Assembly (NCBI GenBank): GCA_032718475.1
Contig: JAUCBJ010007014.1
Location: forward strand, 101,946 to 165,945
DNA: 64,000 nucleotides
DNA from: Nemertoderma westbladi
Taxonomy: Eukaryota > Animalia > Xenacoelomorpha
Direction of reading: 5' to 3'
Within the stretch, counting starts at the first letter, position 1. Every line of letters begins with the position of its first letter. The notes beneath the pieces are model-generated. The model saw only the letters and a list, made by a program, of their open reading frames with translations, did no database searches and was not told the origin of the DNA. The position numbers and the translations under genes were made by a program. Below, one piece after another: positions 14,031 through 54,927 of this stretch.

Positions 14031-14157
14031 TGTTAAAGTGTAAAACAGTAAGATAGGAAACGTACCGCCGTACCGGTGTTCCTCCTTCTATATCTTTTAT
14101 ATCTTATATCTAGTTTGAATATCCCGCCACCAATATACTACATATATACATTTGACA
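14031..14157 (-). repeat. Copia 3' LTR
   Basis: Direct repeat of 18772-18898. Confidence 0.97.
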
Positions 14158-14277
14158 TTCTCACCTCTTTCTTTAACATAAACGTAATAGGGTAGTAACA
14201 GAAAAGAAACATAAAATAAGGAGTCCAATAAATGTCCAATAATACTAACTAGTCATAGTTTTTTTTTTTTTTTTTTT

Positions 14278-17200: not shown

Positions 17201-18693
17201 TTAACATCATTAACACAATTTTCAGTGAACAAAATGACATTTTCAATACAAGGAAAATTTTCCTTTGGTGTCAGTAATATGCAATAATGACCAGATGTAG
17301 ATTTTCTTAATAATATGTCTTGATCAAGTATGTTAGCAGTATCATTATCTAAATTGATAACACACTTGGCTCTTTTTAGTGATTGTTTACTCAAAAGTAA
17401 CGGTATATGTTTGTTTACCACATCTGTTGCCACCATGCAATATTTTTCACCTATAAACACAGGTATTGTTACCTTTTTCTTAGAAGCAACCTTTTCACCA
17501 TCACCAAACCTAAATTTAGTGTTGCTATATTGCTCTATAACATTATTGCTAGCAAACTCACCTAGAGATTCCAGATAAACGGACAACCATTCTTCTCCAC
17601 ATACTGTTGAAGTACAACCAGTATCCAATATACCATGATTAAATGTTTCTAGAACAAATGTCGATTGTTCTTCTTCCGGTTTAATAAACAGTGTTATATA
17701 TACATCATTATCGATACCGGTACCCCCATCTTGATAGTTATTAGGGGGTTGATAGTCAGAGCAGTCTTTTTGAAAATGGTGTGGAGATTTACAACTTCGA
17801 CACAACATTTGTTGACCATCGGCATACCTGGGATTATTAGATACTCTACCATATGTGATCGACCCACCACGTCTGATACTGGTACCGGTACTACTACCTC
17901 GAGAATCAAAACGTCCACGATTATATGAATTATATGATGGTCGTCCAGCTGATCTACTTCTAAAATTAGGCCTACCTCTAATATACCGACCACGTGATGT
18001 AAAATAAACAGATTGTTCATCATCACAGTCCTCCAAATAACCTTCCTCATATAAATTATGATTATCCTCACAAACGAATGTATCCTCAGTCTCTTGCTTG
18101 ACACGCACCGCAGTTGTACGCCCACTATCAGCACCTGTAAACATCACCTTTGATTCCCCAAAGATACGTTTTAATGCTGTCTTCATTTCTTGGTATTTTA
18201 AATCCTTTACTGCTGTTAGAGCCATTTTTCTCTCTGAATCTGACAAATTCGCCTTATCTAAAAGCTCAAAAGCTAAAACTCCATCCCCGATACTCATGTC
18301 ATATTCTTTGGCTTTGTTATACCGTTTCTCAAACTCATTGATAAAGTCGGAAATAGTCTCTACATCTTTCTTCTTTAAATATTTAAACAACGAATAGGCT
18401 TCGTAAGCACAGTCGATTTTATCCTTCAGATAAACTTCATCGAGTTTTCTAAGTAACGTTTTAACTCCGTCATCTGCATTTAGTTGTTCAATGGGTACCT
18501 CTAAAGCTTTATCCTTAGCTTTCCTTGGTAAACACAGCAATATAGCTGGGGCTTGTCGTCTCTTTTCTATATCAGTAACAAGTTGCCAAATCTTTAACTC
18601 CCGTTGCCACGTAACATAATCCGAACCATCACCTAACAGAGGTGGATTTTTATACGACCGCCCACCGGAAACATTTGTACTACTTTCAGCCAT
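14278..18693 (-). CDS. Copia Gag-Pol polyprotein (Gag, zinc knuckle, protease, integrase, RT, RNase H), 1471 aa
   Basis: CRSCKSPHHFQKDC, ILDTGCTSTV, HKQFAH..CSVC, SDNGGEF, KARLVARGF, HVDD, YTDAS and TDSQSL motifs. Integrase precedes RT, which is the Copia order. Confidence 0.97.
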   Translation of the reverse strand: MAESSTNVSGGRSYKNPPLLGDGSDYVTWQRELKIWQLVTDIEKRRQAPAILLCLPRKAKDKALEVPIEQLNADDGVKTLLRKLDEVYLKDKIDCAYEAYSLFKYLKKKDVETISDFINEFEKRYNKAKEYDMSIGDGVLAFELLDKANLSDSERKMALTAVKDLKYQEMKTALKRIFGESKVMFTGADSGRTTAVRVKQETEDTFVCEDNHNLYEEGYLEDCDDEQSVYFTSRGRYIRGRPNFRSRSAGRPSYNSYNRGRFDSRGSSTGTSIRRGGSITYGRVSNNPRYADGQQMLCRSCKSPHHFQKDCSDYQPPNNYQDGGTGIDNDVYITLFIKPEEEQSTFVLETFNHGILDTGCTSTVCGEEWLSVYLESLGEFASNNVIEQYSNTKFRFGDGEKVASKKKVTIPVFIGEKYCMVATDVVNKHIPLLLSKQSLKRAKCVINLDNDTANILDQDILLRKSTSGHYCILLTPKENFPCIENVILFTENCVNDVKKMALKLHKQFAHPSADRLLGLIKDAGLSSKEITCEVNKVTETCSVCKKYKKPKPRPVVGFSLAKEFNETVAGDLIQWGNKTWILHVIDHMTRLSGATVVRTKEKSVIADKFIRCWMAIYGPPKQIMSDNGGEFDNSTFREMAEQFNIKLIPTPAESPWSNGLNERHNGVLKDMLQKLMSDCKYDLETGLAWCVNAKNCLHNVNGYSPYQLVFGQNPNLPCVLNDQLPALEGVTSSQIVAKHLNAIHGAREICIQAESSEKVRRAMRHNIRSQDDVYIQGDSVFYKRDNSAEWKGPGMVIGRDGKIVYVKHGGSVVKVHSLRLLKTCDVAFDQKNQTTSVPDNLSEVNSNLHNVEDDIICIDEYDDDITDVQKGNSSSGLIAANVDKEGIHDTQSHTIRETAKLTLPKINDKISFRLKGEDNWCHGIVLSRAGKATGKYRNCLNVQFTGPKERQDDCDNFDFGTDIDEWTDNNTPVSDGTEDVYLNDYVVSDKYAEAKVYQVQMWDRHNVYKAVDDVGQDRLSTKWVCTMKNDGRLKARLVARGFEEETAELAKFSPTGKKENIRLLLSVAATTNWTIHSMDIQTAFLQGEQIDREVYLEPPQEFKKPGQLWCLKKCVDGLSDAPRKWFMKVKKVLEQIGMKRSMNDDCLYYWESNGVIGGILSMHVDDELWAGTAEFECTIINELRKVFVVGIEKDTVLKHVGLELRQNRHGILLDQHRYIEKLQPIDLASNRNKDSQLTNKEFKALQTLCGQLNWIATQSRPDISFDTCNLSSKLKDPKINDIFYANKIVRRVKSFAMVLKFPRLNLQDLKIICYTDASYGNLDDGSSQGGYLIFVSDCTNNGALLDWQSKKLRRVARSSLAAETLAAVHAIDNAYSLASVLGEILSTTIPIYIYTDSQSLIDNIYTDKGSLTEKRLRIDIRLIREMLEKGEISDLQWVDTYHQLANSLTKKGASTNSLINTLETHKLSQTQ

Positions 18694-18759
18694 TAATATT
18701 ATATTAGTTACGTTGTAGGCCTACTACCTACCTATTGTCTGTTTATTCAGCGTCAACAC

Positions 18760-18771
18760 GCTCTGCTACCA
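18760..18771 (-). promoter_or_regulatory. Copia primer-binding site (tRNA-Met type)
   Basis: TGGTAGCAGAGC immediately inside the 5' LTR, the PBS typical of GalEa Copia elements. Confidence 0.9.
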
Positions 18772-18898
18772 TGTTAAAGTGTAAAACAGTAAGATAGGAA
18801 ACGTACCGCCGTACCGGTGTTCCTCCTTCTATATCTTTTATATCTTATATCTAGTTTGAATATCCCGCCACCAATATACTACATATATACATTTGACA
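18772..18898 (-). repeat. Copia 5' LTR
   Basis: Direct repeat of 14031-14157. Confidence 0.97.
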
Positions 18899-19822: not shown

Positions 19823-22800
19823 CTAATTTTGCTTTGAGGCAGGAGACAAATTATAATCTCCTGTCTCTGTGCGTGTCTCTTCCAATAACACAATATCTTG
19901 GACCGGTCGGTCCAAGGTGTGTAAACCATTAGTTTTACACTTCTTCGGGTGCGGACACTTGCACCTAATTTTCACAGTGACTGTGCGCACTATGTTTTGC
20001 ACGTCTGGGTGTATATGCAAGATCACTCCAGTCTCCCAATATTTTCTCTTGACTATCGGCTCGGTTATTAATACGTAGTCTCCTCTTTGGAGGCTCCGAA
20101 CCGTTTTGTACCACTTATTTCTGGTGGATATGGTAGGAAGATAATATTCCCGCCAATATTCCCAGAATGTGTACGCCACAAATTGAGTCACTTTCCAGCT
20201 TTTACGACTATATAGGTCGGCACTAATGGGTTCTGATGCCGGCACAAGAAATGCTGGACTCTGCATTAGCAAAAGATTCGGCTTTAATGCAACACCGTCT
20301 GGCAACATAGCTATCGGCCTCGAGTTTAGGGTATGCTCGATTTCGATGAAAGCTGTAACCAGTTCGTCGTCGGTAAGTTGTTTATTTACAGGCAATGTTT
20401 TGGCAATGGCCTGCTTTACAGAGCGAACCAATCGCTCCCAACTTCCTCCTCTCCAAGGACTTTCTGGAGTATTGAATCTCCACTCTACTCGTTGCGGCAA
20501 AAGTGCTGCAGAAATTTCTTTATTCTGTGCTGCTTTGTGAGCCGCGTTTAACTCGCTATTCCCTCCGACAAAGTTTGTACCCTTATCGGAGTAGAACGCC
20601 TTTACTAGTCCTCTCCTTGCCATAAATCTCTTTAAGGCCAGGAGCAGAGATTTGGTCGACATGTCTGCCACACGCTCAATGTGTATGGCTCTACTAGCCA
20701 TGCATGTCAGTAGCAGACCCCATCGCTTGTGGGTCAGCCGTCCACTCTTTGCCTCAATCGGACCAAAACAATCCACCCCTGTGTTCGTAAAAGGTGGGTT
20801 ATATGCCTGCACTCTCGCTTCCGGGAGTTCAGCCATCTCCTGTTCCAATACTCTGGCGTTCACCCTCTTGCAAACCAGACAGGCGTCGTACATAGTACCT
20901 ACTGCCCTGCTTGGCTGCAATAGAATGAATCGCTGTCTCGCTGTCGACAAACAGTGTAACTTTCCCGCGTGATGCAACCTCTTGTGTATATCCCATAGAA
21001 TCGCTCTTTGCAATTCTATTGGGTGACTAGGGATAATCACTGGGAACCTAAACTGTGAATTTATGTCGACAGTCTGGATTCTCAATCTATGACAAATCAA
21101 ACCCTTATGGATTAATGGACTCCATTTTCTAAGGGGTTTATAGAGAACTGGTAGTTGAGCCGATAATAGATAGAATTCTTTCGGGAAGGCACACATTTGA
21201 TAATGCTTCAAATGCTTTAATTCCGCTTGATCAATCTCATCCTCTGTCAGAGGTTGTTTCAATTTCCGAATTTGCTCACTATTAGTGCTCGATGGTTCTC
21301 CCAAATGTTCCGAATGTTTTATACAAAGGTACGCAATATATCGGCTTAACCACGCAGTTCTTTTACAAATTGTCAGCCAAGAGGCAGACGAATTTAGTAA
21401 TTTGTCATAAACACGGCATGACTCTAATGCCAGCGACGGTTGTCCGCTAACTAATGGAAGTTTCGAATCCAAACCCGCAGGTTTGGAAACCAAAGGCTCC
21501 ATTGTGTCGGTCATTTTCTGTCCGTCACTTACCAACTGTGACTCTCGTCTAGTCTGTAAGGGTGGTTTTATGTCATAACTTACCCTTCCTGACCTAGTAG
21601 TCACGTAAGTCTGTTGGTCTGACAGGTCTCCGGGCCGCTCCAATGACTCTTCAGGCCGCTCCAATGACTCTTCAGGCTGCTCCAATGACTTGAGTTTGGC
21701 TTTAGACTTTGACTTAGAGACTTTCTCCACTTTGACTTCTGCATCTTCTGGCATCGGATTGGTCACTATCTTCAGTAGCTCTGGCCAATGTTCCTGTGTC
21801 CTCGTTAGAAAATCAGGTCCATGCAACCAAAACTCCTGGGACTCTTCTTGACAGAATTCCGCCGGCATAGCACCTCTCGAAGTTATGTCGGCCGGGTTCA
21901 ACACTCCCGGACAATGTCTCCATTGTTCCTTCGTCGTAAAGTCGATGATCTGAGCGCGTCTGTTGGCCACAAATGTCTTTAGTGCAATATTGTCGGCTGC
22001 AATGTATACTAACACCAAGGATGCGTCCGTCCAATAGAATAAGGTCAATGTCGTGTCTAGCTCCTCAATTACCTGCTTACTTACCTCGACTGAAACTACT
22101 GCCGCCTGTAACTCTGCACGAGGGACAGTCATGTATTTGACTGGCATTGTCTTTGATCTAGAAGTCACAAAGGCCGTCTCAAACTTGTATTGACTTACCT
22201 CTTGGCGAAGGTAGGCTACCATACCAAAGCCGGTGTCACTTGCGTCACTAAACAAGTGGAGCTCTAAGTCAGCTGGAAATACCAGCTGATTCGGAAAGTA
22301 GGATCGGGGCACATCTATATTTTTCAATAGATGCAACTCGGCTTCCCACTCTCTCCACTGCTTTGCATGTATAGGAGATATTGGTTCGTCCCACTCTAGG
22401 TCGGACAACCAAATTTTCCTCATGCACGCTCGTGCTTGTAATATTACTGGACTGATAAAGTTCATCGGGTCAAATAGTCTAGTTAATGTCGATAAGCAAA
22501 TTCTCTTAGTCAAAATTTTGTCTGGGCTACTGGGCTCAAATCTAACTCTTACCTGGAACTTGTCAGTGTTCGGGTTCCAAGCGAGTCCCAGTACTCGCGC
22601 CATGGGAATGGGTTCCACCCCCAATTCAATGTCTCCGCTCCCGCGATCTTTCACCGGGAACGACTCTAACAAGGCCTCCGAGTTAGTGGTGAACTTGGTT
22701 AGAGGAAAACCCCCTGTAGCCAAGCACTCCTGTAGGCCGTGAGCTACTTCTATGGCTTGCTCTGCTGTATCCTTAGACACCAATCCGTCGTCCATGTAGA

Positions 22801-24500
22801 AGTTTCTCAAGATGGACTCGATTACTTCTACTGGATACTTACCAATCTGGGCTGTTGCCGTTTTCTTTAGAACAAACAGCGTACCATTTGGACTATCGCG
22901 GGCGCCAAATATCCTAACGTACATTTGGTATGTAACCACTGGGCCGGATAAGTCTTTATTCTCATACCAGAGAAACCGAAGGCTATCCTGGTCTGCCTTA
23001 CAGGCTCTTACCTGGTGGAACATCGCCTCGATGTCACAAGTAAATGCGAATCGCCGCTGTCTAAAACGTAACAGTATACCTATACTTCTCCCTAATGTCC
23101 GGATTCCTCAACAACCGAGCCCTTACTCCATTCAATCTTTTCAAGGCTAAGCTGTAGTTGTTCTCCAACTTAGGTGGTTGTCGACGCCACAACATTCCAA
23201 CTTCAAAATGTCCAGTCGGTAGCAGACGTATGGTATCTTCCATCATCTCCAGCGACCGTTTCTCATCAGTAGACATGGTTAGGTCATATCCACCGGGTTC
23301 CATTGCGTCCCTATCCAGCCATTCGACGGTTCTAGCTCCTGTCTCGAGGTCCTGGCGTATCAATTCCTTCTGCAACTCCTTCTCACTGTATTGGAAAATG
23401 TCTAGGTCTCGATATCTAGCCACTTGACCCTCCACTATATCGATATAAGTCAAAACGTTAGTCAGATAAGTAGCGTGGGCCGCTGAACCAGACCCACGGG
23501 TCTGATAACAGTAGTCCTCGGGTTCACTATCTGTCCGGTCGTTGTGAAGTGGTTCCGACAACCTAACATTATCGGGAATCAACTCCTCGTCCGACTCGCT
23601 AATGTCACTATAATGGTCAATACAGGTTCTCCTAAACTCGTCTAAGTCTGGTGGTTCTACTAACGGTGGTTCAGTCATAGGCTGTAATCCGTCGTATCTA
23701 TCTATTGGCTTGTCGCCACCTGTAAACTCATAAGACATGGGTACTCTTGTATACCAACCTAGTATAGTCCTATGGGCATGTGGTCCATTTACATGCGGTT
23801 CAGCTGGTCTCGTTTCCCATATTTGGTGTGCGATCAGCTGTTCTGCACCAATCAACATAGAAACATTCCTATAACCTACCTGGTGTCTGGGTACTCTGAG
23901 CTTGTCAAAATACTCCTGTGCTATGGGACTCATCGGCGGCACCTTACCTAACTGCCTGCCGAACCCCTTCATAGCTAGACACTTAAATCCGTCCAATGGC
24001 AAAGCTCTTCGTTCTTGTCGAGTGTGCTGGTCTCTCGGAAGTAGGGAATCTAGTTCTACAGAAATCCTGTGACCCTTGAGGTCACCTACTCCGTGCATAG
24101 ACTTTAACTCTATTTGGATCTCCTCGGCATCCTGGAAGCTAGAAACGGCTCTCGCCACTTCCTCGTCGATATAAGATAATGTGGACGCCGTGTCCAACAT
24201 CACATATATTCTTTTCGATCCCTTATCTCCGGTAAGTTTCACCGGAATCACGCTGAATATTTCCAACGTGGCCGATGATAAATACGTCCGCGCGCTGGTC
24301 GATGAACTATCCGCGGTGAAACCTTGGCAGGTCACTTCTCTCGCGCTCGACTCGCCATCTTCGTCCGACGAACCTGGTTGGTAACCATCGTCCTGGATGC
24401 CAGTGTACGTATTTCTCCTTATCGATACAGGTTCTTTGCTCCCCTTCCTTTGAGGATTTCGCTGTAAGTAACGGTCCGTTGGGGTATGGAAATCCGCATG
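19823..24500 (-). pseudogene. BEL-B pol (protease, RT, RNase H, integrase), with an internal RT deletion and frameshift near 23080
   Basis: MLDTASTLSYI, DIEAMFHQV, FYMDD, LHLFSDAS, GVDCFGP, SDKGTNF, GGSWERLV and LDRPVQDIVLL. The segment between IREKY and GILLRF is missing compared with BEL-C. Confidence 0.92.
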
Positions 24501-25917
24501 TACTACTACTACTACTACTACTAGGATCGGCATGCTGCATTGCAGCTGCATTTTTAAGAATGCTGTGCCGGCTTGTCAACAAAATTGCACCGCCACAACT
24601 CCCTATCACCCATGACATTTGCTAGATCATCCGCATCTTTAAGGCCAGTGTCCTTTAAGATGCGTCTCAAGAAAGTCATGGGCTGTCCACCATGCTTATT
24701 CACTCCATGAGGCTGCCAAAGTACAAGATTATGCACTGGCTGGTCCTCACGGCGAAAGCAATGTCCTGCAAAGCGGAGGCGATTTTGTTCTAGTGTCAAG
24801 CTTGGGGGAACCAATGAGACACCTCCAATGTTATATAGTGTCTGGTTGGAGATGTGTGCATTGTACTTGACACAATGTACCCGGCGTAGCATTCTTGTGA
24901 ATGTGCCATCCAGAGATTTGGTGTCCTCAGCAGTTAGAGCCCAGCATGGACTCCCGTAGAGGAGTACTGGAACTACTGCTGCTCTGAATAATCGGACCTT
25001 AAGTTTCCGATTAATTCTAGGTGACTTCCAAATCCTGGAAAGCCTATTCAAGGCTGCCCATGCCTTTCCCTTACGTATTCGAAGGTCCTCACCTGACTTC
25101 CGGATCCATGATCCCAGGTAACAGAAGTCGTCCACATGCTCAAGCATACCATCCTTTGAGCTTATGCTCATCCGATCAGAGACTTGCTGAGGACTTTCAA
25201 AGTTAACTGTCAGAATTTTGGTCTTTCTGGAGTTAGTAAAAAGACCAACACTAGAAGCAGCATGTTCTAATGAGCTGAGGAGCCGCTGGGCTCCCTCTAA
25301 TGATTCTGAGAGTACTCCTAAGTCATCAGCAAAGTCTAGATCAGTTAGGTACTTGGCAGGATTTCCTCGACTTCTGGAGCCAGTAGGGGGAGTTATCATC
25401 ACCCCATCATCATTATGATGATCTAAGGACATGCGTAGAACATAGTCAACCACAATAATGAACAAGAATGGTGCAAGTGTGTCTCCTTGGAGGACGCCCC
25501 ATAACACTTCAAATGGTTCTGTGTCACCATCAACAGTAGACACAAATGTTGTCGAACCATCGTATACTGATCTGATTGCTGCAATAATTTCATCAGTAAT
25601 CCCATATAATGAAAGTATGCTGAACATACGTGAGCGAGAGACTGAATCAAAGGCCTTGAAGAAGTCAACAAAGATAACAGCCAGATGCCTGTCTTTCTTT
25701 TTTGATAACTCTTCAATTATCCTTCTAAGTGCCAAAATGGGCTCCATGGTCCCACGACCTTTACGGAACCCATTTTGATTTCCACGTAGCAGTCTCTCAA
25801 TGGGATCCCTGATGCGATTTAATAGAATTCTATTGTATAGTTTTGCAGCAATCGAGATCAATGAGATTCCCCGAAAAGAACCATAGAGTGTTAGGTTGCC
25901 CTTCTTGGGAACTGGCA
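24501..25917 (-). mobile_element. RTE-clade non-LTR retrotransposon, 5'-truncated (RT C-terminal part), inserted in BEL-B
   Basis: QNGFRKGR, VDFFKAFDSV, GVLQGDTLAPFLF, DFADD and YLGS motifs; (TAG)n tail at 24501-24523; near-identical to 59203-60611. Confidence 0.93.
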
Positions 25918-28900
25918 TAGCAACTTGTGATGTAGTCTGCCGCATTCCATGCATCCGTCCTTGCTGTTCGGGCACTGCCGCCGTACATGACCTGGCGCAA
26001 GACAAGCCCAACAGGTGTCCAACGTCCGCACTTGAACTCTTCTCTGTTCCGAATTTAATTCTTTGAACTGTCTGCAACTATCTAACTTATGGTCGTCAGA
26101 TCTTACCTCCTTTAGTAAGCAGAATTGGCAACCTACAAATCCATCCGGCAACTCCTGTTGCTTTAACCTATGTCTATCTAACCGCTCACCTGACCATACT
26201 TGCGAGTCTGATCTAAAGGCTGGGGTACTCGAATTATATCTGTCTACTGAGTTAAATGTCACAGTGGTCCTGTCATCGTCAAAACTTACCATAGACTTAC
26301 CGGTAACAGGCTTAGACTCCCTCATATTCTCCTCTGAGAAGTTTGACTTCATCTCTGCTACAGCGTCTGTGGCTATCATGTCATGAATGTGCTGAAGTGT
26401 CAATACTTTACCTTGGCCCTCCAACTTATTCTCTAATTTGCGCCATTTCTGTCTGTAACGCATGTTTAAACGTCTTATTACGCTTTTCAAAACTTCGGCG
26501 TGATCACCATGATGAGGTAGATTCACCGTCCTCAAGATGTCTATTGCGTTCGAAATCGCGTTCGCTAAGTTCAACAGCTCTAACGGAGTTGTAATCCTTC
26601 CGCCCTTACCCAAGTCTTCTACTATCGACTGTGCCATCTTGGTTTTATTCCCGTAGATTTCGCTAAGCATCTTCATTGCCAACTCAAATGCTCTTTCATT
26701 GCCGACGAAGTTGTCAGCAATGGCTCTAGGTTCTCGATGGAGCATCTGAAGCAAATAGTTGAATTTCTTGTTGGGAGTAAAGGTGCTGTTGGTCAGCTGC
26801 TCGTCGACATAGGTTTTGAATGTCCTCCAGTGCTTGTGGTTACCCATAAACTTCTGGGGTTGTTGCGTCGGCAGTCCTTGCCTAGCAGCAAACTTACCTA
26901 TGTCCCTAAGGGTTGTGTCATTCCGGGTTAACAAATGGTTTAGTTCCACAGGGTTGTTAAGTCTGGTCCTTTCCCGGTGGTTCCAACTTACCTGCTCCGC
27001 GTCGGTCCTTCTTTCTTTATAGTTTCGGGACTTCTGACGTCTCATGTCTTCCTCTTCATCGCTTGAGTCTGTGTCGGTCCGTAGCGCTCGCGTTGGTTTG
27101 CGCGCCGAAGCCCTGACCCAAGCATCCTGAATAAACTTTTCTGCCGAATTTTCGAAATTGGGATTATGGATATTCGGGACAGGCGTCCTTACCTGAGGTC
27201 TATGTGGTATAGTCTCCTCTGATATACGTACTCGTTGATTAGGTTGGACTTTATCTAAGTCAGGCCTGCTAGGATTTGAATTACTCCTTACCTGGGCTGC
27301 TTCCATTAACCGTAGGTTACTAAGCATGTCCGTTATAGGTTGGATGTGCGGCGATATAGCTTGCGCTAAACTGGCACTTAACTCATCCCTCGTAATAAAT
27401 TCCTGGCTAGGGTTCTGTTGTATAGTCGGCTCTATCTGAGTAATTCGCTGTCTCTCATATGATCCCTCTTCCGGTTTAACCCGGAAGTTCTCCGTCGAAC
27501 TGGGTCGGCGCTCCGTCCGCGTATTCCAAACCCGCGGGTTCGGTTCGCCAAATACTCGTCCCGTTGGAGTTTCTCTAAACTCTGCATTGTCGCGTTCGGT
27601 ATGAAGTGGTGCGGTGTTCCGATGACGTGGATCCTGCGCGATGGGTGAAGCACTAATACCAACTGGCGTGCGATATGTAGAGAACGGTTTAGCGATCCGA
27701 GTACTCGTAATAGCTGGACCGGGTATAGGAATTCTGGTCGTCGTCGACTCGCGTATAGTCGGAGTTCTCGCTTCCTGTTCGGCCTTCTGCAGTGCGAACA
27801 GTTCTCGCAACTCAGTACCTACACTCGCCCCACATTCTTCGAGCATTCGCATCCCCTTCTCGGCGATTTCATTCGTCTTCCTAGTCCGTTCTTCACTCTC
27901 TAAATTTAATCTCGCACTTTCCAACTGCGCCAGTTTACGTTCTTCTTCTTCCCTCGCTCGTCTCGCTGCGCTCTCTTCTTCCACTCGCGCCTTTTCTTCA
28001 TACAATGCGCGTCGCTCCTTCTCGATCTCGAGTTCACGTTCTTTGCGCTCGTGTTCGAGTTGGAATTCGCGTTTCTTCGCTTCCCGTTCGCGTTCAAGTT
28101 GGAGTTCGCGTTCTTTCTGTTCGCGTTCTTTCTGTTCGCGTTCAAGTTGGAGTTCGCGTTCCTTCTGTTCGCGTTCCGCTTGCTCACGCTTACCTTTCTC
28201 TTCCAACTCTCGCAACTTTGCGTCTAACTTACGTGTGCGCTCCCTTTCCCGTTCGGCTTCCTTCCGTGCCTCCGATGCACGCAAAACTTCCGCCTGCTGT
28301 TCGTCTAGTCGGCGTCTTCTCTCCTCCGCCAAGTTGTGAGAAACAAGGGATCTAGCACATATAACCTTCCCTCGCGCGTGACTAACCTGGGAATCGCCAC
28401 TGTCTCTGGATGCGTCGTCGGGTGGAGTCAACGTTCTCTGTTGGATGTTCTCCGTCGTCGGTAGCACCTGGCCCGGTACCACCACTCCATTCTGCATCAG
28501 CCAGCTAGTAACTTCCCTCTGATAACGGCGCTCTTCCTTATCTTGCGTCTCTTCCCGCTCCACTAAATCTCTCAACTCTGCGTCACTCACCTGAGTCGCC
28601 TGCGCTTGTGATGCCCATAGCAACCAGTTCTCCGTCCTAACTCGTCGAAATCGCTCCGATAACTCGCGGTGCTCCAACAGGGCTGCCAAAACCCTATTGT
28701 AAACCCTCGTTGCCACGTCGCTCGACTGAGACTCTGCTGCCTTCTTCGCTAGGACTGCAAGCTCCTCCGTCTGCTTGAATAACGCTGAGTTATATCCTCT
28801 TCTAATCTCTACTAACCCTTCCCGTCCGATGTTCGCTGAGTCAGCTAACATCTTCCTTACCTTGTCCGCCGTCCGAGTTATATGTCCGGCATGCGCGCGA

Positions 28901-29337
28901 AGTTTCTTCTTTATCGCGATGTCAAGTTCTCTCTCACTTACCTGACTTACACTCAGTGGACTTGAAGGATTATTTCGGGAACTACGGGTACTCCTTACAG
29001 CCGCTGGGACCATGGCACTTACCATACCCACAGGTCTGGAAACCGGGCTCCGGGCTCTCGCTTCTGCTACACTACCCTCCCTATCACTCACCTCTGTCCG
29101 GGCTGCTGTGCAATCCTTCCTTACAGTAGTGGTAGGGGATCCTAATACTATTACTTGAGGTTGTTGTTCTTCCTCACTAGTTACTGTCTCATCCTCCTGT
29201 TCACTTACGTCAGCGTCGCTCGCTGCATCGTCATAGTCGGCATTGTCGTCAACAGTTATGTTGGTGCTATCGTCAGTCGGCGGTCCAGCCACCGTCTCAT
29301 AGCTGTCCTCTAGTGCCTCCTTGTCTGAGACACTCAT
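25918..29337 (-). CDS. BEL-B Gag (coiled coil, DUF1759-like, zinc knuckles), cut from pol by the RTE insertion
   Basis: Long open frame with KFMGNHKHWRTF...KFNYLLQML, CWACLAPGHVRRQC and CMECGRLHHKLL. Confidence 0.92.
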
Positions 29338-30413
29338 AGTCTAAATGTTTGCCTTCCGGCCAAAATATCTCGCAAAGGTTCGAGATATATATATAATTTA
29401 ATCGAAATACGATTAAATTATTTGACAAATAATCAGTTGGTCCAAAATGTCAAAATAAATTCGCAATGCAATATTGTGAATTTAATAGGATATAGTTATA
29501 GCAAATACTAGCACAATATTTAAACAAAAATATTATTATATAGCTATTATATAGCATTTAAATACTGGTATAGCACAAAATAACTTTGAATCTAATACAA
29601 AATATTCAAAATAAACTTGCCACCCGAATATTTCTAATTTTACATATATAGCTCTAATCAACACAATTTTAATTTGAAATATTATTATGTATCCACTAGC
29701 GCGTGGCTACATCTTCGGGTTGCGACTCTCTCTAACTCTCTCTCTCTAACTTGAGCGATTCAAAAAACCATGGCCGGCTAAACCTAAATATCCTAACTAA
29801 TAAATTGAGTTCAGCTTCGCAGTTAAACAACCGGTAATTTTTTACTGCTTCCACAAACACAATGGTGCCAACAGAACAACTAACCTTGTTTGCTGTGAGA
29901 TTCCACGTCCGCGTCCAAAGTTTCAGTCCTTTCGCTGATTGCAAACCGAACCCGCAGACCCACACGAACCCCAAACTCAGAAGTCCCGTCTTGCCATGTA
30001 TCTCCAGATGGTATAAAATAACTAAGCGGTTACCTAACATACCGGTACAAAACTCTAGAATTTTACAAATAATTTTGACCGAAACTGAATTCTCGCAAAC
30101 CTAGCTAAAATTTTCAAAAAACTCACTAATTACAGTTTGCCCTAAGGCCTAAGGAACTGCTGTATTCGCAATTAGTAAAAACGCACTACCGTACTTCCAC
30201 TGTACGCAGTACAGTAAGTAGAACAGTACACCAACCTAACAGCCTAAAGAATACTGTATGTGGTACGGCAAACAAATGTCCTTCTACCGTACGCAGTAAC
30301 AGCAATCAGCCTAATGTACTACTGTACTACTGTACGCGACCAATGAATACAGTAATCTAAAACTGTCTCAGCCTAAGAATACACTATTGACTGCTGCAAG
30401 CAACAGCCAACAA

Positions 30414-30424
30414 ACACGTATCAC
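30414..30424 (-). promoter_or_regulatory. BEL-B non-canonical PBS, complementary to its own LTR (31487-31497)
   Basis: GTGATACGTGT abuts the 5' LTR and pairs with GCACGTATCAC (10 Watson-Crick pairs plus one G-U). Confidence 0.7.
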
Positions 30425-32591
30425 TGTTAAACTAGCGCGACCCCTATACTAACAGCAGAACTGTTGAACAGACAAATACTGGTATACTTCTCTGCCAACC
30501 TAATGAGTTCTCGCCTAACCAATAAGGCACCAAGACTGCTCTACTGTTAAGTAAAGGGGATCAGGAGCGTGCTATTACTAAATGTAGGGCTGCTAAATAC
30601 AATACCGCTACTTACCGTTGGATGGTGCTAATCTGCCGTCCGCTAATATATTTTACTAAATTTACACAGCTCCTGCAAAATCGCTTGTTCCTTTCTCTAC
30701 CGATCGCTCGATAGAGAGCTAACTGTTCGAATCTATGAGCCACGCGGGAATAACCAAACAATAAACCTGAGTCGGCTCCCTAAGCTTACTTAAGACGAGT
30801 GCGAGAGGCTTTGCACTCAGAGTATTCTTACGCCTAACCTTACTATTAAAGTACGCCAATGCCTACGTCTTTTCTAATCGTGAATACTGGGGTTCCCTAA
30901 CGGAATGTATGAATGCGAGAATATTTAAAATAATCAAAATTGGTACAGTATGCTGTCTCTACGTGCGTGTAAAACCACTCCGGGTCTAAAATTGCCTGCA
31001 GCTGGCTTTAGGCCAGCAAATTACTAGTGTGTTGTGCGTACTGAATAATGCGATCTAGCTTATTGCCCGCTAATGCAAATAACCGCTCAGCGTGAATAGT
31101 TTACGGTACTCTAATTATTACGTTAGCTACCCTCCGCTATGCTGCGTACTAATTCTTAATTTTACTAATCGATTACAGTCACAAATATGTAACAGCGTAC
31201 TAATTACTAAGAGTTCCAGAATGCGTAATTCTAATTTATTACACAACAGGTTTCGCTAGTAATAGCCTAAAATGCCGTATTACTTTGACCTAATCAGTAA
31301 TTAATTGTTGTAACTAAGAAATAGAAATCAATCAAAGAGAAAGGCGCCTACCTAAGCATTCGTAATCATAGGCACACTTCAGTAACACACCAATCAGCGT
31401 CAGCAATCACAGCTCGCAATTATACAGTTAACTACAGTGCAGCCCACAGTTGTGCGATTCACTCTTCGTACTCCACACTTCACACTGTGATACGTGCAGG
31501 CCTCTCCCGGGTACATCTAGGCTTCCTAACTAACCCGATTCCTGCCCCCCTAATACTAAATAGAGACGAAACCTGGATCATCAGCCCCCTAATTACTGTA
31601 CCGGCGAATGGTCTGCATGCTACAGTGCGAAACGCCCGACCGCAACAGTGACCCCCTGCCAGCGTTGCCCGCCTTTGAATCCTCCGCTCTCCCTTAGTCG
31701 CCCAACCCCCCGATACGCCAACCGCCTACTGGCACCTTAGCCCTTCATTTAATTGAATAGCTACCGTAGCGGCGCATGCAAAATCACAAAGGTCTGACAG
31801 TCTCAGAAAATCCCTTAGGATTATTGCGTAGAGATGAATCACATAGAACCATTAACAAAAGGGGTAGAAATCATAGTTCTGATTGTAATTAGCAGTAATC
31901 GATAGGATTGATTGAGAAACGCAATTGAGAATAGTAGCACTAACAAATCATTTCAAGCAATTAATCGAAAATATAGCAAATTGCAGAAATATGCAAAATT
32001 ATACTTCTAACTTAATGGTACTAAATATGTCTGAGTGGTTCAGCAAGGAATGTGGGACAATGAAGAAGGAGAAGGTAGGGCTCTACCGGAAAACCGCCAA
32101 TTTATAGGTGATCCGAGTGGGGTGATGCAATAAGGGTGACGCAATCGCTCTCCTATTGGCTCTCCAGTCCGCGCTAGCATTAGGCCAACCTGGAAGCAGT
32201 TAGTCCAATAAGAAGGCCGGATTGTAGCCCTATTGCTTCCCAAACCCTCAAATTATTACCATATATGGTAATGGATCATGTCCCTGGCTGCTGAATGGTT
32301 AGGACTGCGTTCCTATGCTAGCCATGTCGAGGCTAATAACAGCAAGCCCGTATCCAGGGTCCAACAAGAACTTGCTACCCTGGGACTATCTACCTATATC
32401 CTAATACAAAATTACATAGATAGGGCTACGTACTATACAAAATGGATGAATTCAAAATATATGGGCGTTTTAACTTCCTTATCTAAATGTCACCGCACTG
32501 TGCCTTATCTAAATAATTATACTGCATAATAACAAACATATTATACTGTATGATGGCTAATAATGTGGATACAGCGCCATATACCGTAACA
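30425..32591 (-). repeat. BEL-B 5' LTR (2167 bp)
   Basis: TGTTAAACTAGCGCGA...CCGTAACA, followed by the TSD GATGG. Confidence 0.95.
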
Positions 32592-32596
32592 GATGG

Positions 32597-35500
32597 AATG
32601 ATAATTAATGTTTAGATGTAGGGTATTGATTGTTGTGAGTATGTGCTAGATATAGCAGTAATAGTGTTATTCGATATGTAACATTATGAAACAATGTCTC
32701 ATGTATACACTGTAGTGTTGCAACTATGTGTAGGTAAGTCAATGTGTCAGTGTTAATATAGTATATTACATTTTTTATAATATGTTGGTTCTACAGAGTG
32801 ATGCTGGGTTTTAGCACTATTAATTTGACATTTTTTTATTGCGAAATTAGATTCACTGAAAAATTCCATGAATAAACTTTGCGAGACATTCCTTAACTAT
32901 TCTTTGACAACAAATTGTCTATCTATCTATTTTGAGTAAAAAATTTGAAAATTAAAATGCAAGTCTTAAAAACTGAGTAAGTACTGTTATATTTATTTAA
33001 AAATATGAAATTTTGTCAGTAAATGCGAGACTGCTGTAATCATCTATTTTTTTAGTAAAAAATAATAAACTTACTGTATATATGTTGAAAACCAAGCATC
33101 ATGCTACAGAAAAAATATTAACTTAAAATTCTTCACAAACTTATTAACTGAATATTATAACTTATTAACTGTTTCAATGAATTCATATGATGTCATAGCT
33201 TTGCTGAGTTTTGTCAGAGTCATATTCATTGCCTCTGTTGATGTTTCCTTTGGTTGTGTTTTCGGGGAATTCATAGTGGGATTCCTCGGATTTGGTTCTT
33301 GATAAATAAACTGCTGCCTGAGCCTAATATTATTATGTGCTTCACTGTCACAGCCGATTTCAATTGCAACAGGCTTTGTGCAGGGAAGGTTATCTAATGA
33401 ATTGGTGCGACTATGATTGCGTTGGTTAATCTTGCTGGCCTTTCTAGTGTTATGATGTTCCGTTCCCTTCTTTTGGGAAGCAGATTGAGAAGTGTATAAT
33501 GGTTGTGTAATTCGAACATCTTTCATACATGTTCTTAGCCACCCAGTTTCGAACAGCTATGCTTCTCTCCTTGGGATTGATTGGAGGGCAAGATGAATGG
33601 CTTTTCAAGAAGAATGAATTTTTTTTTGGCTTATGAAATTTCTTCAGTAAATGCGAGACTGCTGTAATCATCTATTTTTTTTAGTAAAAAATAATAAACT
33701 TACAGTATATATGTTGAAAACCAAACATCATGCTACAGAAAAAATATTAACTTAAAATTTTTCACAAACTTATTAACTGAAAACAGTATCTAGCATATAT
33801 CCAACCTTTAATTTTACATTTTTTTTTTAGTCAAAGGTAGATTCACTGACATTGTTCTAGAACTTAATAGAAATCTGAGTTAGACATTGAAGCACTATCT
33901 TAAGGTAGGTGTGACAATGTGTGAAATAGATTTCATGTATTATGATCAAGTGAGATATTGTTTTGATTATAAAAGCTAGTATGTTTGTTTAGTTAATAAA
34001 ATAAGGTTTTAATAGTTAATAGTAATAATTAATTCAATAAGGTTATGAAGTCATATTATAAGATTATAAGGTTATAAGGTCACTTCATAATCAATACTCA
34101 AATAGTATGTTACAACTGGAAATACAAGTGTTAACTACATTTGTCCTGGAAAATAAATAATCGACACACAGGAAGATGTTCTATTTACGCCACCTAGAGA
34201 AATGAATTATTTGGCAATTATCAAAGATGAAATACATTCTGCTCCCGCTGGGCGGCTTTATCCTGAATAAATTTAGAAAAGCCTGTTGCCTATATGCTAG
34301 ATACTGTTTTCAGTTAATAAGTTTGTGAAGAATTTTAAGTAAATAGTATATAAGTTAATATTGTTTCTATATGGTGATGTTTGGTTTTAAACATATATAC
34401 TGTAAGATTATTATTTTTTACTAAAAAAATAGCTGATTACAACAGTCTCACATTTACTGAAGAAATTTCTTATTTTTGAATAAATATAACAGTACTTACT
34501 CAGTTTTAAGGCTTACATTATAATTTTCACTTTTTTACTCAAAATAGATAGATAGACAGTTTGTTGTCAAAGAATAGTTGAGGAATCTCTCACAAAGTTT
34601 ATTTATGGAATTTTTCAGTGAATCTAATTTCGCACTAAAAAAATGTCAAATTAATAGTGCTAAAACCCAGCATCACTCTCATCAGCATCAGCATCTCACA
34701 ATATTAAATTTTTTATAATATATTGTTTCTACAGAGTGATGCTGGGTTTTAGCACTATTAATTTGACATTTTTTTATTGCGAAATTAGATTCACTGAAAA
34801 ATTCCATGAATAAACTTTGCGAGACATTCCTCAACTATTCTTTGACAACAAACTGTCTATCTATCTATCTATTTTGAGTAAAAAATGTGAAAATTAAAAT
34901 GTAAGCCTTAAAACTGAGTAAGTACTGTTATATTTATTCAAAAATATGAAATTTCTTCAGTAAATGTGAGACTGTTGTAATCAGCTATTTTTTTTAGTAA
35001 AAAATAATAATCTTACAGTATATATGTTTAAAACCAAACATCACCCTATAGAAACAATATTAACTTGTATACTATTTACTTAAAATTCTTCACAAACTTA
35101 TTAACTGAAAACAGTATCTAGCATTATATATAGGCAACATTAAATTTAACATTTTTTTTTTAGTCAAAGTTAGATTCATGTTCCCTTTGAAGGCGTTTCT
35201 AAATTTATTCAGGATAAAGCCGCCCAGCGGGAGCAGAGTGTATTTCATCTTTGATAATTGCCAAATTATTCATTTCTCTAGGTGGTGTAAATAGAACATC
35301 TTCCCGTGTGTCGATTATTTATTTTCCACGACAAATGTAGTTAACACTTGTATTTCCAGTTGTAACATACTATTTGTGTATCGATTATGGAATGACCGAC
35401 CTTATAACCTTATAATCTTATAATATGACTTCATAACCTTATTGAATTAATTATTATTATTAACTATTAAAACCTTATTTTATTAACTAAACAAACAAAC

Positions 35501-38233
35501 TAGCTTTTATAATCATAACAATATCTCACTTGATCATAATACATGAATTATATTTCACACATTGTCACACCTACCTTAAGATAGTGCTTCAATGTCTAGC
35601 TCACATTTCTATTAAGTTCTAGAACAATGTCAGTGAATCTACCTTTGACTAAAAATAAATGTAAAATTAAACGTTGGATATATGCTAGATACTGTTTACA
35701 GTTAATAAGTTTGTGAAAAATTTTAAGTTAATATTTTTTTCTGTAGCGTGATGTTTGGTTTTTAACATATATACTGTAAGTTTATTATTTTTTACTAAAA
35801 AAATAGATGATTACAGCAGTCTCGCATTTACTGAAGAAATTTCATAAGCCAAAAAAAAATTCATTCTTCTTGAAAAGCCATTCATCTTGCCCTCCAATCA
35901 ATCCCAAGGAGAGAAGCATAGCTGTTCGAAACTGGGTGGTTAAGAACATGTATGAAAGATGTTCGAATTACACAACCAGTATACACTTCTCAATCTGCTT
36001 CCCAAAAGAAGGGAACGGAACATCATAACACTAGAAAGGCTAGCAAGATTAACCAACGCAATCATCGTCGCACCAATTCATTAGATAACCTTCCCTGCAC
36101 AAAGCCTGTTGCTATTGAAATCGGCTGTGACAGTGAAGCACATAATAATATTAGGCTCAGGCAGCAGTTTATTTATCAAGAACCAAATCCGAGGAATCCC
36201 ACTATGAATTCCCCGAAGACACAACCAAAGGAAACATCAACAGAGGCAATGAATATGACTCTGACAAAACTCAGCAAAGCTATGACATCATATGAATTCA
36301 TTGAAACAGCCAGGGCGGAGAGCATCATGCAAAATCCAAAAGAAATTTTTGCTAGGTCCCTAGTGCCACTTGGCTTAGAAAAAGTCCACAACTTCTACAA
36401 CTGACATATCTAGAAGTCCACAACTTCTACAACTGACATATCTTCACCATCAGAGACTGATGAGTATATAACAGTAGATAATATATCAGACAATTCAAAT
36501 GAAACTGAAATGGATCCTACTTACTCATACAGCATAAAGGAAAAGAAAGGTGAATCCCTGCAAGGAAGTCAGGTACCAACAAACATAAGAAAAGACTCTG
36601 TAATAATCACAAACCCATCAGTGAAATGTCCCTCTACTCTAGAACAAGTCCTCAAAAACAATGACACCTGGCAAGAACCAAAAAGACCTGCCAAACCAAC
36701 CTTCAAATCAAAGATCCAGATGCAGCACAACATTAAGACTGAAAACAAATATAGTGAACTAGATAATGATACCAAAATTACCATACTTCTACAACAACAG
36801 ACTGATTTCTTGGCGAATCTAAATAATGTTTCCAAAGAAACTGTCAATCTAAGAAAATCACAAGGTAGTAGCAAGAATGAACACAACAACTTTAAGCAAC
36901 ATCAAACGAGATACGAACAAGAAACCCAACGAAGCACCCCTTCCAACAAACGGAAGCAGTAGAAGCAGCACAGATATGAAGCGGAATAATAAAGGGTTTG
37001 ATCTACACTACAAAACCTCTAGGGATTCATACTGGCACAATAACAATCAAGCCAACTATAATGGTAATCAATATAAATCTATCCCGCAAGATAATATTAG
37101 GCATACGGAGTATGTGAGGAACTCTTGGAGACATGCCCCAGAACCATCTCGACACCAAAGTCAAACATACCAGCAGTATCAGAAGCACAGAGTGAGTAGA
37201 CACGATTATCCACATCAACACTTCCCAAACCCTCATCTAAGAGACCAATCTGAACATACCTCGTACCCCAGTAATGACCAATGTGACATAACCTATGACA
37301 ACAGGTATTACAACCGATCCAACAGAAGTCATATGGCTAGGAATCGTTTTTAAGCTGGCTCCGAGTATCACAACTGGAGACCTAAATTTCAAAGATGCTG
37401 GAAATACGTGTAATATTTTGCAGAGAAGTGAAATCAGTCGCCATAGGCAGCATATGAAGGATGATCTGCAACATGACAGCAAATTCTATTAAGTTCTAGA
37501 ACAATGTCAGTGAATCTACCTTTGACTAAAAAAAATGTAAAATTAAACGTTGGATATATGCTAGATACTGTTTTCAGTTAATAAGTTTGTGAAGAATTTT
37601 AAGTTAATATTTTTTCTGTAGCATGATGCTTGGTTTTCAACATATATACAGTAAGTTTATTATTTTTTACTAAAAAAATAGATGATTACAGCAGTCTCGC
37701 ATTTACTGACGAAATTTCATATTTTTAAATAAATATAACAGTACTTACTCAGTTTTTAAGACTTGCATTTTAATTTTCACATTTTTTACTCAAAATAGAT
37801 AGATAGACAATTTGTTGTCAAAGAATAGTTTAGGAATGTCTCGCAAAGTTTATTCATGGAATTTTTCAGTGAATCTAATTTCGCAATAAAAAAAATGTGC
37901 TAAAACCCAGCATCACTCTGTAGAACCAACATATTATAAAAAATGTAATATACTATATTAACACTGACACATTGACTTACCTACACATAGTTGCAACACT
38001 ACAGTGTATACATGAGACATTGTTTCATAATGTTACATATCGAATAACACTATTACTGCTATATCTAGCACATACTCACAACAATCAATACCCTACATCT
38101 AAACATTAATTATCATTCCATCTTATATTCAAACGTAATTAACCTGTCAATATTGTACTGATAATGTATGTAGAACAAGTAGATTATTATTATTAGTTAG
38201 ATGTATTTCGTATTAATTAATATGCATTTTATG
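32597..38233. repeat. inner palindrome of the inverted-repeat element, built partly from a reiterated ~370-400-bp AT-rich unit
   Basis: 32597-34680 mirrors 34733-38117. Unit copies lie at ~32790-33152(+), 34290-34680(-), 34733-35123(+) and 37550-37920(-). The left arm lacks ~36309-37570. Confidence 0.92.
35846..37483 (+). pseudogene. degenerate coding fragment of unknown, possibly retroelement ORF1-like, origin
   Basis: Overlapping ORFs 35952-36404, 36510-36962 and 36877-37353; WQEPKR...TENKYSEL segment; N/Q/H-rich tail; a 32-bp duplication near 36382-36443 breaks the frame. Confidence 0.35.
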
Positions 38234-39437
38234 TGTTCGCGCTTTTAAGACCTTTGGCAGTTTAACCCGCCAAATCTGTATGTCTTCTAGGTTATAGTTC
38301 GACTTTAGCCTATGACAAGTATTTGACACAAATAAATCCAACATTAGCCGAAGCCAGTCTATGTGCGACCATTCACCCGCTGGATATACCCGGGAGACTG
38401 GATTCGGATGCTTTAATTTGATTGCGGTGCAGGCCTACCGTACTATTCGATTGATCGTTAATATAATTCCTGACAAATATCATTCACTTTCGGGAAATAT
38501 TAGCAGTTCCTTTAGGACGTGGCGCTCTATCTATATAAACAGAGCTATGGCTCACACTAAACACAACGGAATGGATTATAAGTTACACATAAGGCGCATT
38601 CTTTAGGAAATGCTTTGTTACGCGGACAAACACATACAGACTATTGCACACCGCTGCACACTGAATTGTCGATAGTCACTGATTTGAATCACATATAAAG
38701 AGAATAGCAACCGGCATTTGTAGGGCCTATAAAATAGCATTCAATTCACTACAAACCACGATAATATAAGCCGCAATTGCTATATGTAACCGTTCTCTCT
38801 AACCTTAGTGTATCAAGAAGATCGGGGTTTCTGATCGTTTATCGTTATTCTCCAAATAACAATATGTAAACAACTGATACAATTAATAACAAACAGTAAA
38901 TAGCAGTAAATAATGTGCAATACAGCAGTAGGTACCGTACCGTACCGGTCCTCCGGTGCTGTGCTGTGCTCCGTGCGTCCTCACGGTAACAGTTATGTGA
39001 TCTTATAATTAAAGACGTTCTAATGTTGGAATAATTCAGAAATATTCCACAGCCGATGTTTCTAGGCTCTGGAAAAACCAACACACTGAACCCTGTGAGC
39101 TGTTGCAGGTAGCTTTCAACACAGAAAGGAAAAGCTCTCATTGGCAGAACTCCAGATTCTGTAGGTTCCAAATGGTCTAAAATGCCAAACCACCCTAGCC
39201 TTTGCAGCCAATTACATTGATTTAGCCAACATAAGGCTGAATCACTCTGTTTGGTTGATCGTTGTTCCGATTGGTTGATCGAACCGAACGAAGAGGCCGT
39301 CGCTAGGCAAATCAGCCAATCAGCCGGTAGCTTTCATCCTTTGAGTTAGGGAGTTTTTCTTTAGAGTATTTGAGCGCATTGAGGGAAACTGGATTGCGAA
39401 GCAAAAGGGCCAGTTATATCCCACAAAAGCTTTTACA
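38234..39437 (-). repeat. BEL-C 3' LTR
   Basis: Direct repeat of 53719-54922. PPT-like GGGAGCGG on the minus strand at 39438-39445. Confidence 0.96.
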
Positions 39438-53718: not shown

Positions 53719-54922
53719 TGTTCGCGCTTTTAAGACCTTTGGCAGTTTAACCCGCCAAATCTATATGTCTTCTAGGTTATAGTTCGACTTTAGCCTATGA
53801 CAAGTATTTGACACAAATAAATCCAACATTAGCCGAAGCCAGTCTATGCGCGACCATTCACCCGCTGGATATACCCGGGAGACTGGATTCGGATGCTTTA
53901 ATTTGATTGCGGTGCAGGCCTACCGTACTATTCGATTGATCGTTAATATAATTCCTGACAAATATCATTCACTTTCGGGAAATATTAGCAGTTCCTTTAG
54001 GACGTGGCGCTCTATCTATATAAACAGAGCTATGGCTCACACTAAACACAACGGAATGGATTATAAGTTACACATAAGGCGCATTCTTTAGGAAATGCTT
54101 TGTTACGCGGACAAGCACATACAGACTATTGCACACCGCTGCACACTGAATTGCCGATAGTCACTGATTTGAATCACATATAAAGAGAATAGCAACCGGC
54201 ATTTGTAGGGCCTATAAAATAGCATTCAATGCACTACAAACCACGATAATATAAGCCGCAATTGCTATATGTGACTGTTCTCTCTAACCTTAGTGTATCA
54301 AGAAGATCGGGGTTTCTGATCGTTTATCATTATTCTCCAAATAACAATATGTAAACAACTGATACAATTAATAACAAACAGTAAATAGCAGTAAATAATG
54401 TGCAATACAGCAGTAGGTACCGTACCGTACCGGCCCTCCGGTGCTGTGCTGTGCTCCGTGTGTCCTCACGGTAACAGTTATGTGATCTTATAATTAAAGA
54501 CGTTCTAATGTTGGAATAATTCAGAAATATTCCACAGCCGATGTTTCTAGGCTCTGGAAAAACCAACACACTGAACCCTGTGAGCTGTTGCAGGTAGCTT
54601 TCAACACAGAAAGGAAAAGCTCTCATTGGCAGAACTCCAGATTCTGTAGGTTCCAAATGGTCTAAAATGCCAAACCACCCTAGCCTTTGCAGCCAATTAC
54701 ATTGATTTAGCCAACATAAGGCTGAATCACTCTGTTTGGTTGATCGTTGTTCCGATTGGTTGATGGAACTGAACAAAGAGGCCGTCGCTAGGCAAATCAG
54801 CCAATCAGCCGGTAGCTTTCATCCTTTGAGTTAGGGAGTTTTTCTTTAGAGTATTTGAGCGCATTGAGGGAAACTGGATTGCGAAGCAAAAGGGCCAGTT
54901 ATATCCCACAAAAGCTTTTACA
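53719..54922 (-). repeat. BEL-C 5' LTR
   Basis: Direct repeat of 38234-39437. Confidence 0.96.
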
Positions 54923-54927
54923 TTATG

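Follow-up and report, generated by a model that had tools for sequence, protein, structure and literature searches.

How does a BEL/Pao retroelement begin minus-strand synthesis when the bases behind its 5′ long terminal repeat (LTR) lack the TGG of a tRNA-type primer-binding site? The question is raised by two elements, BEL-B and BEL-C, in a 64-kb window (the whole stretch of 64,000 nt analyzed here) of animal-type DNA that is dense with retroelements. We consider the best overall explanation, at a probability of about three in four, to be that a short tract within each element's own LTR serves as its minus-strand primer.

Anatomy of BEL-B and BEL-C

The features of the two elements and of a nested internal control, in window coordinates, are as follows.

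30425-32591, minus strand: BEL-B 5′ LTR, 2167 nt, TG..CA
7184-8834, minus strand: BEL-B 3′ LTR
7179-7183 and 32592-32596: BEL-B target-site duplication GATGG, 5 bp
30424-30414, minus strand: BEL-B primer-binding site GUGAUACGUGU, starting GT right behind the ACA of the LTR, without TGG
31497-31487, minus strand: BEL-B LTR tract GCACGUAUCAC, putative self-primer, with its 3′ end at 31487
7730-7740, minus strand: BEL-B tract in the 3′ LTR copy
30384-30413, minus strand: predicted 13-bp hairpin directly behind the BEL-B site
31235-31240, minus strand: candidate poly(A) signal, the first AATAAA past the BEL-B tract
25891-29340, minus strand: BEL-B gag, with DUF1759 and C-terminal zinc knuckles
19823-24575, minus strand: BEL-B pol pieces (protease region, RT-RNase H, Peptidase_A17, integrase, DUF5641)
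8835-8844, minus strand: purine-rich tract before the BEL-B 3′ LTR, its last six bases identical in BEL-C
53719-54922, minus strand: BEL-C 5′ LTR, 1204 nt
38234-39437, minus strand: BEL-C 3′ LTR, 1204 nt, with 13 substitutions relative to the 5′ LTR
TTATG: BEL-C target duplication
53718-53708, minus strand: BEL-C primer-binding site, starting GT, without TGG
54481-54471, minus strand: BEL-C LTR tract able to pair with the site, repeated in the 3′ LTR at 38986-38996
14031-18898: nested copia element, with near-identical 127-nt LTRs and a 1480-aa open frame
18760-18771, minus strand: tRNA-Met-type site (GalEa type) of the copia element, internal control

Both elements share with the Belpaoviridae a gag-pol organization in PR-RT-RH-IN order, TG..CA LTRs, and a purine tract (PMC8742986). 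Their gag/pol is of the Pao type, with Integrase_H2C2, Peptidase_A17, DUF5641, and DUF1759 present in each, and the LTRs are paired and bounded by a target duplication. The best BEL-B homologs are BEL/Pao proteins of the same domain families at 30-42% identity, the named ones coming from marine invertebrates, fish, and insects. The ICTV description of the family, in which replication is tRNA-primed and poorly understood, lists LTRs of 0.2-1.2 kb and a primer-binding site of 18 nt that matches tRNA-Arg or tRNA-Gly (PMC8742986). In place of a site matching 18 nt of a host-tRNA 3′ end, BEL-B and BEL-C have one that starts GT and contains no TGG, and their LTRs of 2167 and 1204 nt exceed the stated range. 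By their proteins and tree position, both are BEL/Pao elements, and they depart from the ICTV description in primer site and LTR length.

The BEL-B copy is disrupted by a frameshift in pol, a LINE at 24511-25917 between gag and pol, and the copia element nested at 14031-18898. Its LTRs differ by 11 substitutions, one 3-base indel, and 519 nt (30441-30959 of the 5′ copy) that are missing from the 3′ copy. The LINE piece is 98% identical to another at 59203-60611, with RVT_1 and DUF6451 domains. Both elements are inserted into copies of one other repeat (5922-7183, 37573-38233, 54923-55650), at points ≈110 bases apart in the coordinates of that repeat. Between pol and the 3′ LTR, BEL-B also carries a broken extra sense ORF (10590-14032, minus strand), whose pieces measure 529, 223, and 448 aa. 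It contains three CCHC-like knuckles, with an Atlas lead of 0.88 to fungal CCHC proteins; it has no Pfam match and no counterpart among 81 loci or elsewhere in the window. The product could be a candidate RNA chaperone. Elsewhere, a 123-base unit forms a tandem array with an open minus-strand frame (62408-64000), and a 459-aa frame (56978-58357, minus strand) has a weak GDSL lipase/esterase-like match (E 0.004, under the family cut-off). Domains of this kind occur in some LINE ORF1 proteins.

Rfam gave no matches on 29300-32700, ARAGORN found no tRNA in the whole window, and a search across the window for sister-subfamily primer sites gave nothing relevant. The copia site is the tRNA-Met site of GalEa1, as given in the accessible part of PMC3587641.

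Complementarity between the primer-binding site and the LTR

The BEL-B primer-binding site (30424-30414) pairs with the LTR tract at 31497-31487 through 10 Watson-Crick pairs and a terminal G-U, and the tract appears again at 7730-7740, exactly where the initial annotation had placed it. The BEL-C site (53718-53708) pairs with 54481-54471 through 11 Watson-Crick pairs, with a loop of 752 nt. That annotation had also described two LTRs that cannot be aligned yet share an ACA-GT junction and an 11-nt duplex, and this description is confirmed: the best blastn match between the LTRs has an E value of 0.25, and ACA-GT stands at both LTR ends. The loop of ≈1070 nt proposed for BEL-B measures 1062 nt from the tract 3′ end to the site, but it is an outlier, the loops of 17 relatives spanning 77-226 nt. 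An 18-base look-alike with the palindrome CCCGGG occurs at 31503-31520 and 53865-53882 on opposite strands (16/18, E 0.25), just upstream of the tract in BEL-B; its origin may be chance.

Dinucleotide shuffles of the LTR reached the observed Watson-Crick run from the first post-LTR base in 6/5000 trials for BEL-B and 3/5000 for BEL-C. Matches no more frequent than in shuffled LTRs across the clade had been named in advance as a potential refutation, and the shuffle nulls contradict a chance match. Among downstream offsets, at least 10 pairs were found at 4/1105 (BEL-B) and 11 at 1/1099 (BEL-C), offset 0 being included in both. With G-U pairs freely allowed, the chance probability was 0.15 for BEL-B and 0.04 for BEL-C; given this loss of significance, the case rests on the Watson-Crick pairs, and the terminal G-U adds nothing. 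When spacers of 0-3 bases and splice junctions were allowed, 6/600 (BEL-B) and 3/600 (BEL-C) shuffles reached the observed length. Only 2 pairs were obtained for the nested copia element, whose primer-binding site is of the TGG tRNA type.

Split and contiguous partners in related elements

A metagenome scan for relatives returned 80 loci, of which 51 with DNA upstream of gag were tested and 29 were left out. Many of these relatives lack TGG, and their post-LTR bases match an LTR sequence that forms only after in-silico removal of a GT..AG segment. We applied a strict junction rule that required a GTRAG, GTANGT, or GTAGG donor, a YAG acceptor behind 7/12 pyrimidines, and at least 10 pairs beginning 0-3 bases after a CA. 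Under this rule, which was fixed, donor pattern included, after the first matches had been seen, 18/51 loci (13 families) matched as against 44/1550 cross-family swapped pairs; among the 33 negatives, many lack a complete LTR. A permissive version (any GT[AG], any YAG, any CA) was dropped, flooded by swap matches.

Further reading added split cases (L027, L030, L041, and L051 (16 pairs)) and contiguous ones (L014, L018, L020, L021, L054, and L056). Four loci (L016, L036, L049, and L080) show one half only, at contig ends, and those that were not readable (L003, L004, L007, L047, L071, L037, L058, L052, L078, and L079) were left out. A tRNA-type site with TGGTCC was present in six metagenome relatives and one insect-derived locus. 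Scans of the viral collection gave 0 and 1 loci, with no LTR, and a 20-base LTR motif had 0 matches. Some LTR copies end in TA or AA instead of CA (L021:900-911, L027:83-91, L094:6690-6700), and two loci (L023 and L030) are tandem BEL/Pao arrays in which neighboring internal regions have one LTR in common.

The 24 families gathered by eye as positives comprise 16 split and 8 contiguous ones, with BEL-B and BEL-C among the latter. Their post-LTR bases pair with their own LTR over 10-16 positions (mode 11), and the tract 3′ end is always ..AC or ..AU. In the split families, exon 2 supplies 4-7 of the paired bases, the introns measure 71-426 nt, the donors are GTAAGT-like, and the acceptors are pyrimidine-rich. 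There are 23 different 10-base sites over the 24 families, in which positions 1 and 2 alone are constant (G in 23/24, T in 24/24). In a 24 × 24 cross test, each site formed 10-16 pairs with its own tract, whereas a foreign partner gave 7 or fewer in 550/552 cells. Among relatives whose LTR end is fixed by both copies, 6/6 of the non-tRNA type match at 10-12 bases, a length reached in 0-1/600 shuffles each, and a seventh (L027) has 11 pairs; two tRNA-type loci with ends fixed in the same way (L008 and L044) reach only 4-5. Across the 24 families, then, the site is complementary to the element's own LTR, site and tract covary, and in 16 of them a GT..AG segment interrupts the partner. The earlier proposal that self-complementarity with covarying sequence is a clade trait is well supported by these 24 families, their 23 site sequences, and the single split on the tree that is not rejected (see below).

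Two alternatives bear on these data. LTRs of 1.2-2.2 kb offer many windows for a chance match, BEL-B alone reaches 1% once spacers and junctions are allowed, and the permissive junction scan was flooded by false matches. Chance would, however, have to account for two elements in one window and 22 more families, and it is contradicted by the shuffle and swap nulls; we give it almost no weight. In a second alternative, the duplex would be regulatory, acting in translation, export, or the choice between spliced and unspliced RNA for packaging, and an unrecognized host RNA such as a tRNA fragment would prime. There is precedent in the tRNA halves that prime some copia elements (PMC6317226, available sections). 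Against this, each of the 23 different sites in 24 families is matched by its own LTR, the duplex never stops more than a few bases from the LTR end, the point at which synthesis has to begin, and it is absent from elements with a TGG site, so that we regard a regulatory duplex with priming by a host RNA as improbable.

Held-out loci

A second scan provided 30 further BEL/Pao loci (L082-L111), 22 of them long enough to test and six with both LTR ends. All 30 come from records of prokaryote genomes, including one for a Wolbachia chromosome, and most likely reflect host contamination of the assemblies. Of the six with both ends, two pass the strict rule unchanged (L091 with 10 pairs and L094 with 14), three match when the rule is relaxed or reset, and one (L100) is of the tRNA type. 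The three comprise L111, with 12 pairs once its 5′ end is reset and from a family already in the first set; L082, contiguous with 11 pairs behind a 4-base spacer that lies outside the rule; and L105, a miss with 10/11 pairs across the junction and a mismatch at position 3. Two more loci (L085 and L087), when read by hand, have 11 pairs across a junction, and L084 and L099 show the acceptor half with no matching donor half.

Phylogenetic placement

A quick, unrooted LG+G tree of 30 rows, which are unnamed or named by host only, places 21 self-complementary families in a single starred branch. BEL-B and BEL-C, two long-branched sisters (100), fall outside that branch and close to the tRNA-type rows and L065. 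Mapping the matches on a tree had been suggested from the start, and a single split of all 24 families from the six tRNA-type rows is not rejected, with a slightly better score (AU p 0.549). The split and contiguous states require 6 changes on the tree, indicating that the intron was repeatedly lost or gained. Descent of BEL-B and BEL-C from an intron-bearing ancestor may be a candidate history, weighed down by their placement outside the starred branch.

Predicted splice junctions and folding

In one relative (L014), the 5′ LTR copy has an acceptor where the 3′ copy has the joined sequence at the same base, a pattern expected if a spliced RNA had been reverse-transcribed, with the caveat that similarity between the copies is 88% and that the contig could be chimeric. 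Its upstream part resembles the exon-1 ends of L036 and L030. For BEL-B and BEL-C, a retained intron starting one base behind the tract was rejected: the donors there score −5.2 and 2.5, compared with 7.3-11.4 across the 16 split families. Nothing near either tract scores as an intron remnant. Acceptor-like sites (scores 6.0 and 8.5) lie 53-73 bases upstream of the two tracts.

The primer helix was predicted at a probability of at least 0.6 in 8/12 spliced folds and at 0.16 or below in 12/12 unspliced ones (arbitrary starts); it was 0.0 in 3/12 spliced and 3/5 contiguous relatives. In the folding check proposed in the initial annotation, the predicted BEL-B helix stands at 0.92-0.98 at all three tested starts; the BEL-C value is 0.69 if the RNA begins at the tract and 0.04-0.13 with a start upstream, which favors a start at the tract for BEL-C.

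These predictions, together with the poly(A) signals, bear on whether priming occurs in cis or in trans. In the latter case, a short capped, spliced, and polyadenylated RNA from any LTR, solo LTRs included, would anneal tRNA-like to a separate genomic RNA and be trimmed to the tract 3′ end. Such a primer would account for the persistence of the intron, and it fits the absence of a predicted cis helix in 6/17 relatives, the very long loops of BEL-B and BEL-C, and an AATAAA or ATTAAA 7-90 bases past the tract in 15/24 families. A nearby poly(A) signal is equally needed by a short R region, however, and in BEL-B and BEL-C the signal lies 247 and 569 bases from the tract. The strong predicted cis helix of BEL-B and the cis action of the known self-primer Tf1 (PMC7175516, accessible text) also argue against priming in trans, which we consider unlikely.

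Genomic copies and the transcription start

In organism A, copies of the BEL-B family abound in three DNA runs that come from two samples, one of which may be the source of the window. Of the 17 variable places listed in 31430-31580 (151 bases), four fall inside the 11-base tract (31489, 31491, 31495, and 31496), which is no more conserved than its flanks among genomic copies. The four variants each keep a G-U pair with the site in the window, a result that is not significant, as 8/11 positions tolerate a transition (≈0.2 by chance). One low-depth contig has a change at site position 3 that would restore Watson-Crick pairing with the 31489 variant, the two being unphased. Many contigs track the LTR upstream of 31496-31498 and then diverge, marking a boundary at the 5′ edge of the tract. 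A sequencing run guessed to be RNA gave 7 short contigs, with the tracts outside them.

In Tf1, the transcript's first 11 bases pair with the primer-binding site and RNase H makes its cut between bases 11 and 12 (PMC7175516, PMC4600332, in the sections available). The same mode applied strictly to BEL-B and BEL-C would make the tract the capped first 11 bases of transcripts that start at 31497 and 54481, with a cut after base 11. Consistent with this are a duplex of exactly 11, tracts that both begin at a pyrimidine-purine step, the BEL-C helix of 0.69 obtained only with the tract start, the lack of a second upstream helix in either element (ranks 14 and 17 of 23), and the contig departure at 31496-31498 in organism A, a pattern that a promoter block with its end at the start might produce. 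The wider family set argues otherwise. No family of 24 has a TATA at −24 to −36, only 8/24 have pyrimidine-purine at the tract start (BEL-B and BEL-C included), and extra pairing upstream of the tract exceeds permutations (p 0.009 over 24 families; split 0.02, contiguous 0.15). A start at the tract would moreover require first exons of 3-10 bases in the split relatives, and the acceptor-like sites upstream of both tracts also speak against it. We therefore regard the strict Tf1 mode as somewhat doubtful, and the transcript start probably lies upstream of the tract. The initial annotation had coupled self-priming to a start at 31497; the self-complementarity behind that proposal stands, and for BEL-B and BEL-C alone the evidence on the predicted start is mixed.

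Proposed mechanism

Priming by the element's own RNA, as such, appears very likely; for the specific case of priming in cis with an internal cut, we see even odds. In this cis mechanism, the genomic RNA would fold back so that the LTR tract pairs with the primer-binding site, and the element's RNase H or another nuclease would cut behind the tract 3′ end. Reverse transcriptase would then extend from the freed 3′ end into U5. In split families, the host spliceosome would first join the two halves of the primer. During LTR replication, the 3′ LTR is the template from which all sequence upstream of the cut is restored. With the predicted cut in exon 2, an unspliced 3′ LTR could therefore supply the intron again. 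Occasional splicing of the 3′ LTR copy might yield contiguous, intron-less LTRs like those of BEL-B and BEL-C. By copying the primer, plus-strand synthesis would rewrite the site in each cycle, and site and primer would change in lock-step.

Beyond the window, we lean toward a broader scenario in which a large, mostly marine BEL/Pao branch dropped tRNA priming. The spliceosome would build the primer as an exon-exon junction in the 5′ LTR, so that splicing licenses replication, and the site would preserve that junction as copied by reverse transcription. BEL-B and BEL-C would then represent a long-LTR offshoot with a ready-made, intron-less primer and loops of 0.75-1.06 kb.

If correct, self-priming, known in Ty3/gypsy and proposed for copia, would reach a third LTR superfamily, and the lack of a recognizable primer site in many BEL/Pao elements would be explained. 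A splice-assembled primer would couple reverse transcription to RNA processing in the nucleus, a connection that we did not encounter in the literature searched. It would also provide a simple annotation rule and sharp predictions for the junction position, the cut site, and the end of the strong-stop DNA.

Comparison with known self-priming elements

The BEL-like element Cer7 of Caenorhabditis elegans has been proposed to carry its own primer, an element-encoded tRNA-like sequence rather than an 11-base LTR tract or a splice junction. In the literature searched, we found no report of self-priming or a splice-built primer in BEL/Pao elements (including the accessible parts of PMC6238403, PMC8220671, and PMC4558846), although subscription journals, Repbase, GyDB, and supplements could hold one; term searches of PMC3118150 and PMC554778, on the text available, returned no mention of primer sites. 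The accessible sections of the sources consulted describe self-priming for Tf1/sushi, Tj1, Tcn1, and TAR only (PMC7175516, PMC4600332, PMC6317226, PMC3601003, PMC6934838).

Among these, the plant Ty1/copia TAR lineage (Houba, Osr-1) is likewise predicted to self-prime from sequence alone; unlike the split BEL/Pao families, it belongs to the copia superfamily and has no splice junction reported in the part of the source at hand (PMC6317226). The closest likeness is to Tf1/Tf2 of Schizosaccharomyces pombe, Tj1, and the Tf1/sushi and Tcn1 chromoviruses, which, in the sections available, also lack a tRNA site and pair ≈11 post-LTR bases with their own LTR RNA. BEL-B and BEL-C show the same combination of ≈11 post-LTR bases complementary to their own LTR and no tRNA site. 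The Tf1 group is Ty3/gypsy, however, and the window elements are BEL/Pao by their proteins, which makes them Tf1-like but not members. They differ further in that the tract lies at the transcript 5′ end in Tf1, whereas its position here is putative, in that an intron-like segment splits the tract in 16/24 families, and in the loops of 752 and 1062 nt found in the window elements. BEL-B and BEL-C appear to represent a new form of Tf1-type self-priming within a superfamily whose members are described as tRNA-primed, with a contiguous primer in this window and a predicted splice-built one in most families.
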